Shown here piece after piece: positions 19,453 through 34,486 of a stretch of 64,000 bases of DNA. The stretch lies in IMG/VR virus record IMGVR_UViG_3300009184_000001, positions 30,441-94,440 of that record. One strand, 5' to 3'. The stretch is from a virus. The position numbers and the translations under genes were made by a program. The notes beneath the pieces were generated by a model. It saw nothing but the letters and a program-made list of their open reading frames with translations, was not told the DNA's origin and made no database searches. Numbering within the stretch: position 1 is the stretch's first letter; every line of letters starts with the position of its first letter.

Positions 19453-19788
19453 TTAACTAGTTAGGTAGTCTAAAAGCTCGGGGTTGTCTTTTAGTACCAT
19501 TAAAAGGGTTTCTTCGTACATTCCAATGAAGTAATGCTCTGTTTCTTCAAAGGTTAGCTTAGGATTCATTTTACTTCCTGTAAAAAAAGTAAATCTAATA
19601 GCATGTAGAATCTCGTGCATTAGCACTTGCTTCTTACGGGTTGTGGCTGCATCTATATCAATAATAATCATGTTACGACGTTCTAGTGTATACCCGTAGT
19701 TATCCTCATACAACATGCCATCTTCTTTAGAACTGTGTTCTACTATGTCCCATATCTGAGTACCAATAAGTAACGTTTCTGGAATCAC
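19453..19788 (-). CDS. Small HExxH metallopeptidase-like protein
   Basis: VLMHEILHAI followed by a downstream E. Confidence 0.7.
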   Translation of the reverse strand: MIPETLLIGTQIWDIVEHSSKEDGMLYEDNYGYTLERRNMIIIDIDAATTRKKQVLMHEILHAIRFTFFTGSKMNPKLTFEETEHYFIGMYEETLLMVLKDNPELLDYLTS

Positions 19789-19958
19789 CTGTCAGACCCC
19801 CATCCTGAGCCTTTAAAGGTGAGTGACGGTGCTGAGAAGACACGAGTCATCTCTTTCTTGCACTCTAAACATTCTGGAACTATACGTTGCTCTGATATGG
19901 TTACAACGTGACTAACAGTAGTCTCACAAGTTTCACATTTGTACTGATAAGTAGGCAT
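19785..19958 (-). CDS. FmdB-family zinc-ribbon protein, 57 aa
   Basis: Manual translation MPTYQYKCETC...CLEC...MTRVFSAP...FKGSGW. Confidence 0.85.
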   Translation of the reverse strand: MPTYQYKCETCETTVSHVVTISEQRIVPECLECKKEMTRVFSAPSLTFKGSGWGSDR

Positions 19959-19960
19959 TG

Positions 19961-20062
19961 TTAAGCCTTAACTAATTTACGTTTGATTGGGTCAAATACT
20001 TTTGGAGACTTCTTAAAAGCCTTCCCACTATTTCTTTTATCGTTACGGGCACCTTTTGCCAT
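19961..20062 (-). CDS. 33-aa basic peptide MAKGARNDKRNSGKAFKKSPKVFDPIKRKLVKA
   Basis: AGGAG RBS at normal spacing; fills the gap between tRNA-Trp and the FmdB gene. Confidence 0.7.
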   Translation of the reverse strand: MAKGARNDKRNSGKAFKKSPKVFDPIKRKLVKA

Positions 20063-20088
20063 TTTATTCTCCTATCTGTTATTGTTCG

Positions 20089-20159
20089 CTGATTCTGTAG
20101 GAGTCGAACCTACGCTAACGGTGTTGGAGACCGCTGTGCTACCGTAACACTTAGAACCA
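20089..20159 (-). tRNA. tRNA-Trp (CCA), 3' CCA not encoded
   Basis: Acceptor TGGTTCT/AGAATCA, anticodon arm GCGGT-CT CCA AC-ACCGT, T arm GTAGG-TTCGACT-CCTAC. Confidence 0.92.
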
Positions 20160-20164
20160 TTAGT

Positions 20165-20226
20165 GCAACTACTCCCAAGGACGAAACAATGGGCGGAGTT
20201 ATCCACGGCTAGTTGCCATACCGTGG
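20165..20226 (-). ncRNA. Putative pseudoknotted RNA between the mini-tmRNA and tRNA-Trp
   Basis: CCACGG/CCGTGG interleaved with GCAACTA/TAGTTGC, plus an ACTCC/GGAGT hairpin. Confidence 0.5.
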
Positions 20227-20229
20227 CAG

Positions 20230-20309
20230 TGGACCAGCACAGAATTGAACTGTGGTCTTACAGAGTCCTACTGGAGGCTTTGTTCTGCAATCGACACCAT
20301 TTCTAGCCC
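20230..20309 (-). ncRNA. Minimal tmRNA-like RNA (tRNA-like domain only, no tag reading frame)
   Basis: GGGCTAG/CTGGTCC acceptor with G3-U70 and discriminator A; stemless D-loop AAATGGTGTCGA; helix TTGCAGA/TCTGTAA; GAC linker; T arm CACAG-TTCAATT-CTGTG. Confidence 0.8.
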
Positions 20310-20383
20310 TTGTGCCAGGATGATTGCCACTAGGCTCACGCGAGAACATACGGTGCTCCTGGCGAACACACGCTCTTGTAATT

Positions 20384-20411
20384 AGTATACACCAAAATTA
20401 CTTGATGTCAA
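20384..20411 (-). promoter_or_regulatory. Sigma70/SigA-type promoter for the RNA cassette
   Basis: TTGACA-16 nt-TATACT. Confidence 0.7.
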
Positions 20412-20931
20412 TTACCTTAGGTTTCTTTTCTTCAGGAAGCTCTTTCTTAAAAGTAATTACTAGTAGTCCATTATCTAGTTCAGCACTTGTTACTACCCAG
20501 TACTCAGCAATAGCAAGAGATAGAGTAAAGTCTCTAGTAGCTATACCTTGATATAGTACTTCTCCTTTAGCCTTACTCTCCTTGTTACCTTGAATAGTAA
20601 TAGTAGAGTCTTTAACAGTAACAGTAATTTCTTTTTTACTAAAACCAGCAACAGCTACATTGAGTAGGTTAGTTTCATCATCCAATTGAACAATGTCGTA
20701 TGGGGGATAGGTTGGTTTATTTGAGGTAATTTCCTTGAGTTGGTCAAGGATAGGTGACCAGCCAATAGATAGACGGTCTAGACGAGGGAATAGGTCAGCA
20801 ATGGTAATAACCTTAGGCTTCTCTGATTGCCACTTCTTATAACTATCTTCGTGGATATTTGGACCCCAGGGAGTATAAGGTGGTTTTTTGTTTTTATCCC
20901 ATGGGTCATTTGAATATGGTTGTATATGCAT
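20398..20931 (-). CDS. Small heat-shock protein (Hsp20/IbpA family)
   Basis: YPPYDI, AVAGF, YQGIATRDF, A.LDNGLL.I, PKVIDI (IxI motif). Confidence 0.92.
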   Translation of the reverse strand: MHIQPYSNDPWDKNKKPPYTPWGPNIHEDSYKKWQSEKPKVITIADLFPRLDRLSIGWSPILDQLKEITSNKPTYPPYDIVQLDDETNLLNVAVAGFSKKEITVTVKDSTITIQGNKESKAKGEVLYQGIATRDFTLSLAIAEYWVVTSAELDNGLLVITFKKELPEEKKPKVIDIK

Positions 20932-22679: not shown

Positions 22680-23048
22680 GCTACTGCTTAATATTAAAAG
22701 AGCTCAACCGTGTTTTTCACCTGGCGATAATATATCCTGCTTGCGTTAGGGTTGTCCCAAAATTACCGTTATCCTAACACCATCATAAATAGTGATGGCA
22801 CACTACTTATGTGAATAAGGTTTCGTGCTACCTATGGCGTGTAATTCCTATTTATAGGCATAACCCTTAGTAATACGGCTAAGGGTTATGCTCATAAAGT
22901 AATCGCTGACTATCTCCCCTTATTGCTACGGCACGGCTTATTCATTAGGGTTATCTCCCCTAATGTGTGAACTGTGCCGTAGTTAGGTGCAGTAAACGCT
23001 ATAACAACCGTTATAGTGAAACCCTTTACGCTTAGGAGCGTGATAGCG

Positions 23049-23660: not shown

Positions 23661-23851
23661 TCTGGCTACTGCTCAACACACGGGCAGGCTAAGTGAGTCT
23701 ATCACCAGACTTACGAAGCCTGCCCGTTGCTGTTATCAAGTAAGACGTCGAGCAACGTCTATAAATAATGCAGAAGTTACGCACGCTCTATGCTCCTAAC
23801 TGCTAGGGAAAGTTAGGCGGGAAAGCCAGTGTTATTCCGATAAGGCAGTCA

Positions 23852-23924: not shown

Positions 23925-24146
23925 ATGGCTAAGAGCAAGTATGTCTTTGGAAATGCTTACTATAGCAAAGCCCTAGCTATGAAAGATTACTATTATCATA
24001 GGGCAAAAGCAGTGAAGTGGTGGTGCGAGACATTTAACTCAGCACCAACTGTAAGGTCTGATAGAAGAACCTTACGTAAAGCAAAACAAGTCACTAACTG
24101 GGACTTGTCAACAATGAATCTCTGGGAAGGAGAGCAGTATGTGTAA
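23925..24146 (+). CDS. Hypothetical protein
   Basis: AAAGGAG RBS. Confidence 0.65.
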   Translation: MAKSKYVFGNAYYSKALAMKDYYYHRAKAVKWWCETFNSAPTVRSDRRTLRKAKQVTNWDLSTMNLWEGEQYV

Positions 24147-24432
24147 ACACACAGAGATAATAACAGCAAGCCGTAATGCTGTTGTAGCCCTAAGGGCTAA
24201 AGTCCAAAGAAAACTACTTGTATTAGAGAACCCTTTTACAAGCGGCTCTGTAATAGGAGAGTTCTCTAGGCAAGAGAATGCCTATGACTTTCTCCTTATG
24301 GAAATAGAAGAGGTTGGCTGTAAGTCCTGTAAATATGATGCTCTAGACCCTGGTAGAAAGAGTAACTACCTTAGGTTTCTAGATGATTATGTTACACACT
24401 TTGCTAATGGTAAGTGTGAAGACTGTGAGTAA
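24139..24432 (+). CDS. Hypothetical protein with CxxC pairs
   Basis: 97-aa ORF with GGAG RBS. Confidence 0.6.
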   Translation: MCKHTEIITASRNAVVALRAKVQRKLLVLENPFTSGSVIGEFSRQENAYDFLLMEIEEVGCKSCKYDALDPGRKSNYLRFLDDYVTHFANGKCEDCE

Positions 24433-24491
24433 GTCTTTCTCATAGAAGCAAGGATAGTATTTGGGTTATCTATCCTCTAAGTCTTCTCTAT

Positions 24492-24665
24492 ATCTCTACA
24501 AATAAGACCCCCGTAGAGATGAATAAAGGGGGCAAGTCGTCCTAGTAGCGCACTCCAAGTGGCATTCCCCTAGAAATACGCAGGGTGAGTAAGGTTCGAA
24601 TCCTTACAGTGTGTGAAAGGCTCTCTCTATATAATAAGTCCCCCATAGAGAGCAGTAAAAGGGGG
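24492..24665 (+). repeat. Two ~42-nt direct repeats predicted as H-type pseudoknots, flanking a tRNA-like element
   Basis: 24492-24532 and 24623-24665 share TCTCTA..AATAAG.CCCCC.TAGAGA...TAAA.GGGGGCAA. Confidence 0.7.
24548..24615 (+). ncRNA. Degenerate tRNA-like element with no D arm or canonical anticodon arm
   Basis: Perfect T arm TAAGG-TTCGAAT-CCTTA; acceptor-like GCGCACT/AGTGTGT. Confidence 0.45.
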
Positions 24666-24811
24666 CAAAGCCCCCTTAGACCCCCGTACAAGGGCGTTCT
24701 AAGGGTAACCAAAGGGGCTTGGCTACGACCAAGGCAAGCACAACCGCTGGCGGTAGCTGTCTTCTCTAGAAGTAGTCAAGCCCCTCAACCTATATGAAAG
24801 GTAGGTAAGCA

Positions 24812-24997
24812 ATGACTAAATCAGTCAAGCAAGCAACACCTGTTACACCTGTTACACCAGCTAACACTAGCAAGCGAGCAATCGCTAGGCTCAAAGTTAG
24901 AGAAGCAAAGCACGGTGCAGAATGTCTTTACTGTGATGGTAGTGACCACAACCGTAAGCAAGTGTGGGATGCTGAAACACACAGTTGGGTAAAATAA
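24812..24997 (+). CDS. Hypothetical protein
   Basis: 61-aa ORF, AAAGG RBS, CLYC. Confidence 0.6.
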   Translation: MTKSVKQATPVTPVTPANTSKRAIARLKVREAKHGAECLYCDGSDHNRKQVWDAETHSWVK

Positions 24998-29651: not shown

Positions 29652-31589
29652 ATGCAAATAATACCTAACGGTTACAATCCCCTTGAACTTGACAGTGATA
29701 AATATATTGCTGTCAATACCGACGTTGAAGACCTGAATGCTGAGCGTGCTGAGCGTATGACGAGAGTCATATCTAAGTTCTCTAGTGCGATTACATCCCG
29801 GGTTGTCAATGTGTCTGTAGTAAATGACAAGCAGGTCAACCTGCCTAGTGCAGACGCTACAGCGTGGTCAGATGCTGAGAACATCTGGTTCAATATAGAC
29901 AAGTTAGGTGACCTCAATGACCCCGACACTGCGTTAGCAATCAAGGGTGTCAGTCTTCACGAATTAGGTCACATACAACTAACACCTCGTGCTGGTAGCA
30001 ATCTAGTCAAGTGGGTTCGCGGTAACAACTTTGAGCGTGCATTCAATATACTCGAAGACCAACGCACCGAGTTGTTCTTGTCTACTAAGTACAGTAACGT
30101 AAAGCACTGGTTCACAGCAGCAGTTACTAAGTATCTTATAGACAATCCACAAGCAATACCTAATGCGTTCCCACTCATACACGGTAGGTCATTCTTACCA
30201 GCAGAGTTGCGTCAAGCAATTCGTAGTGCGTATGCCAATCAATCTATAGCCAATCAGTTGGCTAGTATTATTGACAGGTACACAGTACTCAATCTATCTG
30301 ACAGTGTTAGTATCCCTATAGCACAGCAGTTGATTAGAGAGTTCCACGAGTTGATTGCTTCAACTGGTCAAGGTTGGTCAGATGTACCTAACCCAGACAA
30401 GAATGGCAGTGGCGCAATTATGAAGTCATCAGAGAAGTCTAAGCCTATGAACAAAGCAGGTCAAGACCGTATCATTGACAAGATAAACAAAGAGCGTGGC
30501 AATCAGCAGTCTAATCCTAGTGGTGACGAAGAGGGTGAAGAGTATGAGCCTAGTGACGAGCCTAGTGATGAGCCCGGTGAAGATGGTGAGGGTGAGTCTA
30601 GTGACGGTGATGCACCTAAGCAACATCAACTTCCACAGTCTGACGGTAACCCCGGCAAGCAAGCAGGCGAAGGTGTTGAAGGTGCTACTAACAACGTTAC
30701 ACAGGTAGCACAGAAACATCTCAACAATGCTAAGCAGATATTGCGTGAAGACCTACAAGATATGGTAGCCCAGTTCAATGGTGAGTCTTCACTTACTAGC
30801 AAGCATCAGAAAACACCAGAGCGTAGTTATTATGAGCGTGAGGTAGCTGTGCCTGTAGACGTTGTTACTCAAGTCAAGTCATTCGTTAATCAACTAGAAC
30901 TGATACGTGCTGAGCATGACCCAGGTTGGAAGCGTAGAGTTAGTGCTGGTAAGTTAAATGTTTATCGTTATATGACTGGTGCTGAGCCTGACGAAGTGTT
31001 TGACCTATGGGATGAGGGTCGTGAAGATGTTGTAGACATTGAGACCGTTGTCCTGCTAGATAACTCAGGCTCTATGGGTTGGACTATTGACTCAGCACAC
31101 GATTCTATGTGGGCTATCAAGCGTGCTATGGATAAGATAGGTGCTTCTACTACAGTAGTTACTTTTGCTGATGATGCTCGTATATTGTACGGTGCCAATC
31201 AAAAAGCCAAGGTTACTAAAGCGTATGTAGGCGTAGCAGGTGGTACTAATCCTAAGCAAGCCGTTGACTATGCTAAGTACATTCTTGCTAACAGTGAGCG
31301 TGCTATCAAGATACTTATCGTCATCACTGATGGTGAATGGTGGAACTCAGAAGAGCAAGATAGAATCATAAGTCAGATGCGTAAGGCTGGTGTTATTACA
31401 GCCCTAGGTTATATTGACCCTCGTGGTGCTTGGTCTGAAGAAAACAGGCAGAGGTTTGCTGATGATAGAAAACAGCAGGTCAATGGTCACGGTGCTGAGA
31501 TTGTTGTAGCGTTAGACAACGGCAACTCACTGCTAAATCTTGCCAAAGCATTGGTCAAGGCTGGCATCAAACGTAACTTATCTAAGTAA
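29652..31589 (+). CDS. VWA-domain protein (CobT-like partner of the AAA ATPase)
   Basis: N-terminal HELGH and N.LED.R.E; acidic linker; MIDAS LLDNSGSM, GGT, ITDG. Confidence 0.88.
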   Translation: MQIIPNGYNPLELDSDKYIAVNTDVEDLNAERAERMTRVISKFSSAITSRVVNVSVVNDKQVNLPSADATAWSDAENIWFNIDKLGDLNDPDTALAIKGVSLHELGHIQLTPRAGSNLVKWVRGNNFERAFNILEDQRTELFLSTKYSNVKHWFTAAVTKYLIDNPQAIPNAFPLIHGRSFLPAELRQAIRSAYANQSIANQLASIIDRYTVLNLSDSVSIPIAQQLIREFHELIASTGQGWSDVPNPDKNGSGAIMKSSEKSKPMNKAGQDRIIDKINKERGNQQSNPSGDEEGEEYEPSDEPSDEPGEDGEGESSDGDAPKQHQLPQSDGNPGKQAGEGVEGATNNVTQVAQKHLNNAKQILREDLQDMVAQFNGESSLTSKHQKTPERSYYEREVAVPVDVVTQVKSFVNQLELIRAEHDPGWKRRVSAGKLNVYRYMTGAEPDEVFDLWDEGREDVVDIETVVLLDNSGSMGWTIDSAHDSMWAIKRAMDKIGASTTVVTFADDARILYGANQKAKVTKAYVGVAGGTNPKQAVDYAKYILANSERAIKILIVITDGEWWNSEEQDRIISQMRKAGVITALGYIDPRGAWSEENRQRFADDRKQQVNGHGAEIVVALDNGNSLLNLAKALVKAGIKRNLSK

Positions 31590-34152: not shown

Positions 34153-34324
34153 AACAATATGGAGAATATACGTAGACTATGGTTCAGGCTATGGATGGGT
34201 ACCAGTTAACTGGGCTCCTACGTTTGATACAAAAGAAGAAGCACACGAATGGATTAATGATGACCATGATTGGGAGTCACCAGTAACAGCACATGAAGAG
34301 GAAGTAGAAGAAGATGAAGACTAG
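34130..34324 (+). CDS. Small protein, paralogue 1 (WAPTFDTK motif)
   Basis: GW....WAPTFDTK.EA..WIND. Confidence 0.6.
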   Translation: MRSTTLSKTIWRIYVDYGSGYGWVPVNWAPTFDTKEEAHEWINDDHDWESPVTAHEEEVEEDED

Positions 34325-34481
34325 GTATATGATACAAGAACGTTTTCCAGGAGAAGGCTGGCAACTTGCTCACTGGGCACCAACGTTTGATACTAAGCAA
34401 GAGGCACTAGACTGGATTAATGACCCAGAGAAAACGTGGGAGACACACGCTTCAGTACTTGAAATACAAGTAGAAGAATAA
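34314..34481 (+). CDS. Small protein, paralogue 2 (WAPTFDTK motif), 55 aa
   Basis: Manual translation MKTRYMIQERFPGEGWQLAHWAPTFDTKQEALDWIND... Confidence 0.6.
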   Translation: MKTRYMIQERFPGEGWQLAHWAPTFDTKQEALDWINDPEKTWETHASVLEIQVEE

Positions 34482-34486
34482 AAAGA

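Follow-up and report, generated by a model that had tools for sequence, protein, structure and literature searches.

A stretch of viral DNA 64,000 nucleotides long (the window; positions 30,441 to 94,440 of IMG/VR record IMGVR_UViG_3300009184_000001) holds, between two small genes, two copies of a hairpin with five cytosines in its loop (C5) and five guanines shortly downstream (G5). Made from the letters alone, an original prediction took them for twin H-type pseudoknots that bracket a tRNA-like element, with internal covariation as evidence for a real structure and a new RNA motif as the outcome. The locus raises three questions: whether the twin is the functional unit, whether the loop cytosines pair with the downstream guanines, and whether the structure belongs to any described RNA family.

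The virus is a phage of 94,440 bp with direct terminal repeats that encodes a terminase, a portal protein, DNA polymerase A, and ribonucleotide reductase. By terminase, its closest cultured relatives are Streptomyces phages such as BRock, at 50-51% identity, and the element described below belongs to a small clade of ~90-kb uncultured freshwater phages. To our knowledge, phages of freshwater Actinobacteria have so far yielded few structured regulatory RNAs, and these hosts are themselves largely uncultured.

The twin motif in the window

Both copies are present in the window, position for position and letter for letter as predicted (Table 1). Their stems differ at two base pairs, both by compensatory changes (the outer pair is A-T in copy 1 versus C-G in copy 2, the inner pair C-G versus T-A), and AATAAG is common to the two loops. 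A descriptor of the form stem-C5-stem matches the window at these sites only (2 matches; 0.00 expected from 100 shuffles), and a scan with the same descriptor finds no third site in the full 94,440-bp virus record. The minus-strand tRNA locus at 19780-20420 likewise contains no motif similar to the twin. Thermodynamic folding gives a different emphasis for each copy: copy 1 is not singled out by RNAfold (z = -0.58), and the G5 of copy 2 is predicted to pair not with its loop C5 but with the next C5 downstream, forming the hairpin that we call P2.

Homologues in freshwater phages

Homologues were collected by pattern scans of IMG/VR and JGI metagenomes and by one protein-anchored search. Eleven distinct homologues were recovered on viral and metagenome contigs, all from lake or freshwater samples. 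The metagenome search proposed together with the motif has in this way produced further relatives, and the pairing of stem 1 is kept in 13 copies from 11 homologues. The set is small and its members closely related, such that the effective sequence number in the covariance model (R1) is 1.22. A 14-mer, CCCCTTAGACCCCC, proved too loose as a search pattern; its 119 loci are mostly chance matches and entered the covariance model as background only.

A single copy of the motif is present in 9/11 homologues. In L005, L008, L004, and L198 the sole copy is like copy 2 of the window, and in L156 and L160 it has the stem of copy 1 (ATCTCTAC/GTAGAGAT) and the linker GAATAAA, followed directly by CAAAGCCCCC. 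Because the copy-1 form is the only copy in some contigs and a copy-2-like form the only copy in others, copies 1 and 2 represent two alleles of one module.

Other searches delimit the distribution of the element. It occurs once per genome in 3/3 complete genomes and is absent from 185,579 prokaryote species genomes, among which 18 loci carry the P2 20-mer and none exceeds 30 bits with R1. A blastn search with 3 kb around the site gave no match among 50,697 phage records. The protein encoded immediately upstream (97 aa) led to no related loci, and a separate search found 14 further homologues of that protein; a search for related loci by way of the AAA ATPase returned one genome only, which was already known.

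Architecture and genomic setting

Alignment of the homologues (alignment A1) and RNAalifold define a conserved element of 215-330 nt that comprises helices P1 to P6 (Table 1). The region 24433-24814 is one non-coding RNA element of the + strand, and the twin motif is not free-standing but corresponds to P1 plus the 5' arm of P2. It forms the 5' module of an element that runs to a start codon.

Table 1. Positions and components of the RNA element and the associated twin motif, numbered from the first letter of the window.
Feature	Position	Strand	Components and basis
5' flank of the element	24433..24491	+	Hairpins at ~24436-24449 and 24451-24476 and the conserved run AAGTCTTCTCT; folding and alignments
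Copy 1, orphan partial duplicate of module P1	24492..24532	+	Stem ATCTCTAC 24492-24499 / GTAGAGAT 24513-24520; loop AAATAAGA and CCCCC (C5) 24508-24512; linker GAATAAA; GGGGG (G5) 24528-24532
Degenerate tRNA-like insert	24538..24614	+	Poor cloverleaf in relaxed ARAGORN; block identical in L148
P1 (copy 2; motif with G5, 24623-24665)	24623..24658	+	Stem CTCTCTAT 24623-24630 / ATAGAGAG 24645-24652; loop ATAATAAGT and CCCCC, ending AAG(T/A)CCCCC, C5 24640-24644; linker CAGTAA (CAGTAAAA between stem and GGGGG)
P2, invariant 8-bp hairpin AAGGGGGC-AAA-GCCCCCTT	24659..24677	+	-13.7 kcal/mol; 5' arm includes G5 24661-24665
P3	24673..24705	+	Short form 24679-24685/24691-24698; long form CCCTTAGA 24673-24680 / TCTAAGGG 24698-24705
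Junction TAACCAAA	24706..24713	+	Alignment; site of optional domains
P4	24714..24784	+	13-14-bp helix 24714-24726/24772-24784; encloses P5 and the runs ACCAAG and CTAGAAG
P6	24788..24814	+	Hairpin ACCTAT/GTAGGT 24788-24793/24801-24806

The 5' flank is present in 7/11 homologues and is not part of the core, since L011, L012, and L195 lack it. The P1 hairpin is kept in 13/13 copies through three registers of change. P2 reads AAGGGGGC-AMA-GCCCCCTT across the homologue alignment. P3 is built on TTAGACCCCC and GGGGCGTT, with an apical loop of 6-27 nt among homologues; its pairing bases are invariant in the 11 homologues, and its long form overlaps the 3' arm of P2. An invariant run, CTAAGGGTAA, joins P3 to P4, and inside P4 lies a small variable hairpin, P5. 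P6 half-covers the ribosome-binding site GAAAGGTAGG, located 6-7 nt before the ATG (24812-24814) of a 61-aa open reading frame (24812-24997).

Some members carry an additional domain between the CTAAGGGTAA junction and P4. It measures 114 nt in L004 (L004:2752-2865) and at the same place in L156 and L160; an unrelated domain of 118 nt is found in L008 (L008:7393-7510). Concerted changes at three short segments of the former (GGT/ACC/GGT versus GCT/AGC/GCT) indicate that the domain is itself structured.

The element fills a 379-nt gap between the 97-aa open reading frame (24139-24432) and the 61-aa open reading frame, both on the + strand, amid a block of small early-type open reading frames. 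Downstream of it, at least 5 unrelated families of open reading frame are found among homologues, and the upstream gene also varies. The persistence of the element among changing neighbors indicates that it is a module of its own. Pfam searches with ten neighboring open reading frames gave no matches, and a promoter and terminator scan was not enriched and found no + strand site at the element. Two other readings were dropped. A -10-like reading of the P1 loop rested on the TATAAT of some alleles, which other alleles do not have; a coding reading failed as no frame is open across homologues.

The early region of the window is unusually rich in non-coding hairpins. Nearly perfect inverted repeats at 22851-22898, 22926-22982, and 23680-23727, with arms of 20-25 nt and loops of 6-8 nt, occupy gaps between early + strand open reading frames.

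Covariation and constraint

The covariation first seen between two copies extends across the family. In pair counts on alignment A1, 96.6% of cells are standard pairs, and 8 pairs show changes on both sides; 0/500 shuffles reach 8, and sliding the partners by 1-3 columns gives 0-3. Two of these pairs lie in P1 and 5 in P4. Over the 13 copies, the outer P1 pair appears as C-G, A-U, and U-A and the inner pair as U-A, C-G, and A-U. Compensatory changes in 11 homologues have therefore kept stem 1, as the original prediction held from a single comparison.

Divergence of the surrounding genomes gives a measure of how much of this conservation is due to constraint. Between the window genome and two complete relatives, amino acid identity is 76-91% for the terminase and DNA polymerase, and their third codon positions are 46-55% identical, near saturation. 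The 5' domain of the element is nevertheless 73-94% identical to that of the window and the 3' domain 64-91%, and the 5' domain has 58 invariant columns of ~90. Set against the third positions, the 73-94% identity indicates that invariance reflects constraint and not recent common descent, and the element is, to judge from these comparisons, under strong selection.

In summary, the element bears the marks of a functional RNA: conservation beyond that of synonymous sites, helices that covary, optional domains that are tolerated, and invariant segments that are mutually complementary.

Two predicted folds of the 5' domain

The loop C5 and G5 are perfectly complementary and invariant in 13/13 copies, with no covariation either for or against their pairing. 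The predicted C5:G5 helix is in a mixed position: its two strands are complementary and never vary, but no covariation attests it, and it competes with P2, an invariant hairpin that uses the same G5. The A-rich linker that was thought to connect stem and G5 is not a constant feature. It ranges over 7-19 nt, is not always A-rich, and ends in two A's that belong to P2. With a stem of 8-9 bp, a loop 1 of 8-11 nt, a loop 2 of 0-1 nt, and a loop 3 of 7-19 nt, the putative P1 pseudoknot would have loop lengths compatible with what is generally known of pseudoknot geometry.

In full elements, G5 also forms the 5' arm of P2, and nested folding prefers P2; only the orphan copy 1 has a G5 without a competitor. 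The invariant TCTAAGGG, for its part, is a perfect complement of the 3' arm of P2 (CCCCCTT, then AGA). When nested folding is denied the loop C5 and G5, 11/11 homologues refold to P1 plus the long form of P3 and lose no more than 3.3-7.3 kcal/mol. Pairing of C5 with G5 as a duplex contributes -9 to -11 kcal/mol before any pseudoknot penalty, given that ViennaRNA scores nested folds only, and such a penalty is roughly several kcal/mol. With the penalty taken as this rough figure, the two folds would be of similar energy.

We tentatively favor, with somewhat less than even confidence, a cis-acting leader in which a pseudoknot and a hairpin would alternate as a four-segment switch. The 5' domain would act in cis on the early mRNA. 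Segment 1 would be the loop C5 of P1, segment 2 G5, segment 3 CCCCCTTAGA, and segment 4 TCTAAGGG. In fold A, segment 2 would pair with segment 3 as hairpin P2, leaving the loop C5 and TCTAAGGG free; in fold B, segment 1 would pair with segment 2 in the H-type pseudoknot and segment 3 with segment 4 in the long form of P3. Each base of the four segments would have two alternative partners, which we propose as the reason that these segments never vary while P1 and P4 covary. Which fold is taken could be decided by a ligand, by a protein, or by the sequence in which the RNA folds as it is transcribed. The output could be translation of the open reading frame behind the half-masked ribosome-binding site, or else read-through or processing at P2/P3.

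This proposal draws on complementarity, energy estimates, and an argument from invariance, in a region where the pseudoknot, P2, and both registers of P3 are all invariant. Several observations speak against it. Neither the length nor the content of the linker is constant, loop 1 (8-11 nt) is longer than a pseudoknot needs, no pairing was found that joins segments 1 or 4 to the ribosome-binding-site hairpin P6, and the optional domain of 114-118 nt parts the two halves of the element. Nor is transcription termination an evident output, since P2 is followed by TTAGAC and not by a U-tract and the terminator scan found no + strand site.

A plainer account, in our judgment rather unlikely but the strongest competitor, is a structured but static intergenic region of a polycistronic early mRNA. 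Here P1-P4 would be fixed hairpins that neither switch nor form a pseudoknot, serving as termination or pause sites, as RNase processing sites, or as stability sites; P6 would tune translation, and the invariant bases would contact a phage or host protein. The nested fold with P2 is indeed the best structure by both RNAalifold and RNAfold, and the P2 sequence is found in unrelated lake contigs, sometimes in tandem and without the upstream C-rich loop, which indicates that P2 can be an independent module. A plain P2-P3-like hairpin pair also precedes another gene in L011. This second, simpler tandem hairpin (L011:1444-1526, - strand; GGGGGGCAAGCCCCCC, then CCCCCC...GGGGCG) is found 500 nt upstream of the main element, where it directly separates a stop codon from the ribosome-binding site of the following gene, and it is without P1 and P4. 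It differs in sequence from P2-P3 of the element, which shows that lone hairpins of this type are free to vary; this counts in favor of the switch, in which the bases would have to satisfy two partners. What a static region leaves unexplained is the invariance of the loop C5 and of TCTAAGGG, each a perfect complement of a P2 arm, in the face of saturated neutral divergence. P2 moreover has no U-tract, and the element is found at one place in a genome instead of at many gene boundaries.

If the four-segment switch is real, it would represent a small new control element built on a pseudoknot and a way to study early-gene timing in these phages. A more specific version, which we regard as doubtful, is that of a new class of phage-borne riboswitch or protein-responsive switch. 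In it, a metabolite or factor would stabilize the C5:G5 pseudoknot and thereby flip the four-segment switch, which would govern a variable early cassette in uncultured freshwater actinophages, and the twin would add a second, constitutive pseudoknot and a tRNA-like processing signal.

Comparison with described RNA families

The expectation of a new RNA motif was borne out, as no described family in Rfam 15 matches. At the gathering score, the only match in the whole window is a tRNA-Trp at 20089-20159, and at E <= 10 nothing relevant matches 24300-24900, including preQ1, SAM-II, fluoride, 6C, xrRNA, T-box, and tRNA models. The element is a previously undescribed structured RNA.

Among known systems, riboswitches of the preQ1-I, SAM-II, and fluoride types offer a likeness in form. 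In them, too, the 3' part of a hairpin loop, 0-1 nt before the 3' arm of the stem, is complementary to a run farther downstream; they too lie in a 5' leader near a ribosome-binding site, with a pseudoknot that competes with an alternative helix. The element differs in its stem of 8-9 bp, its loop 1 of 8-11 nt, and its other conserved bases, and it has no Rfam match to them. Its putative pseudoknot is also not placed over the ribosome-binding site, which lies at least 150 nt downstream, and its neighboring genes, being without Pfam matches, suggest no ligand.

Four-segment attenuators such as the trp leader (1:2 plus 3:4 versus 2:3) resemble the element in that the middle segments can pair either with each other or outward, giving folds that are nearly equal in energy. 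In contrast to these, the element has no leader peptide and no U-tract after the 3:4 helix, and its segment 1 lies inside a hairpin loop, by which the 1:2 pairing becomes a pseudoknot.

The only Rfam model to match recurrently at the site is Ocean-VII (RF03092), in six of the homologues scanned. The match spans the 3' arm of P1, the linker, the G/C-rich hairpin, and the trailing AGAC. The element is nonetheless not a member, as it scores 15.6-19.7 bits against a gathering threshold of 53.5, and the model is without the P1 hairpin, P3, and P4. The name Ocean-VII does not appear in the main text of PMC5737381, presumably the paper that described the family.

Lastly, the actinobacterial 6C sRNA (RF01066) displays C runs in hairpin loops and comes from the phylum to which the phage hosts likely belong (PMC6486639). 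It provides the model for an improbable alternative, in which the locus would encode a trans-acting small RNA whose C-rich loop, doubled in the twin, would target host or phage mRNAs at their G-rich ribosome-binding sites, much as 6C sRNA works through its C-rich loops (PMC6486639). Agreement with this idea is found in the invariant C5 at the 3' side of a conserved hairpin loop and in the fact that the closest cultured relatives by terminase infect Streptomyces. The 6C model, however, gives no match at E <= 10, the element is not free-standing and has one C-loop hairpin in most members, and no promoter or terminator bounds a small transcript. Conserved structure continues unbroken into the next open reading frame's ribosome-binding site and start codon, and the C5 has a perfect partner 16-30 nt downstream in the same RNA. 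Both features are at odds with a free small RNA.

Strand and mosaic exchange

Relatedness of the element does not follow that of the core genes. The complete genome G002 (L011 record) has 89-91% amino acid identity to the window in terminase and polymerase, yet it carries the most divergent element and different flanking genes; G001 (L005 record), at 76-78% amino acid identity, has an element that is more similar to the window than that of G002. Mosaic exchange of the element is thereby indicated. Mosaicism is also seen at the scale of whole genomes in G000, G001 (L005 record), and G002 (L011 record).

Such mobility could be expected of a DNA-level element, in which the P1 and P2 palindromes and the C and G runs would be protein sites, a replication or recombination signal, or the boundary of a gene-shuffling module. 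Besides the departure of the L011 genome from core-gene relatedness, this reading, which we consider very improbable, can point to the differing genes on either side of the element and to the fact that P1, P2, and P3 alone reveal no strand. Against it, more than 30 G-U cells in P3, P4, and P6 indicate an RNA read from the + strand, and the frequent G-U pairs of P4 and P6 would turn into A-C mismatches if the opposite strand, or DNA, were what folds. The compensatory changes, furthermore, preserve pairing and not sequence, and the optional domains are inserted at places where a helix loop or junction tolerates them.

Origin of the twin and the tRNA-like insert

Both copies together with the intervening tRNA-like piece are found in the window, in L148, and in the X3 metagenome contig, which comes from a third study. 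Single-copy forms are seen in contigs of other lakes, which skip 24466-24622 or 24519-24659; twin and single forms therefore coexist. Copy 1 matches the allele of L156 and L160 through GGGGGCAA and then breaks off, by which it lacks the 3' arm of P2. It scores 35.8 bits with covariance model R1, against 70-113 bits for full members.

From these alignments, the twin is a derived product of insertion or recombination, ~131 nt long, that carries the 5' part of another allele and is not the basic unit. The insertion is dispensable for the element, because 9/11 homologues are without it. The block 24469-24631, comprising copy 1 and the tRNA-like piece, is 100% identical in the window, L148, and X3, in which the flanks are ~10% different; the identity suggests that the block has spread laterally in recent times.

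The original proposal that paired H-type pseudoknots bracket the tRNA-like element, as RNase J roadblocks or as twin aptamers that would shield or label a processed small RNA, is on this evidence the least probable account of the locus. In its favor, the twin is real in three independent data sets, its block of copy 1 and tRNA-like piece is identical across lineages with ~10% difference in the flanks, and the G5 of copy 1 has no competing C5 downstream. Against it, 9/11 homologues keep the rest of the element with a single copy and without the tRNA-like piece, copy 1 is another allele cut short, and the tRNA-like piece fails tRNA models. The case serves as a caution for reading a sequence without comparison: what appeared as a twin with internal covariation is two alleles joined by an insertion.

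The insert itself keeps some tRNA-like features. Its T arm is intact (TAAGG 24590-24594, TTCGAAT 24595-24601, CCTTA 24602-24606), with the canonical TTCGAAT loop on a 5-bp stem, and is stacked on an acceptor-like stem of 6-7 bp that includes G-U pairs. Unlike tRNA genes and tRNA-like structures, it has neither a proper D arm nor a proper anticodon arm with a 7-nt loop, and no CCA. Neither ARAGORN at default settings nor the Rfam tRNA model recognizes it; in the cloverleaf that relaxed ARAGORN draws, the acceptor, D, and anticodon stems are mismatched and the "anticodon" is 4 nt long. In IMG/VR, no other contig contains a 22-mer taken from its T arm. The insert could represent either a tRNA gene in decay or a signal for processing.

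Similar hairpins and repeats elsewhere

The P2 hairpin, as TAAGGGGGCAAAGCCCCCTTAGACCC, is also found in an unrelated family of lake contigs (L157:8130-8470, L136, L139, L145, L170, and ~30 others). It is often arranged there in tandem units of ~50 nt, with GGTTTAAG spacers and more small hairpins of the form AAGGGCGGAGCCCTT. Kinship of these contigs with the phage was considered and dropped, as tblastx found no shared proteins. Within the window, two adjacent direct repeats of 76 and 50 nt at 34185-34486 are 70-75% identical, are spaced by 163-166 nt, and appear to be coding; they suggest that a protein segment has been duplicated in tandem.
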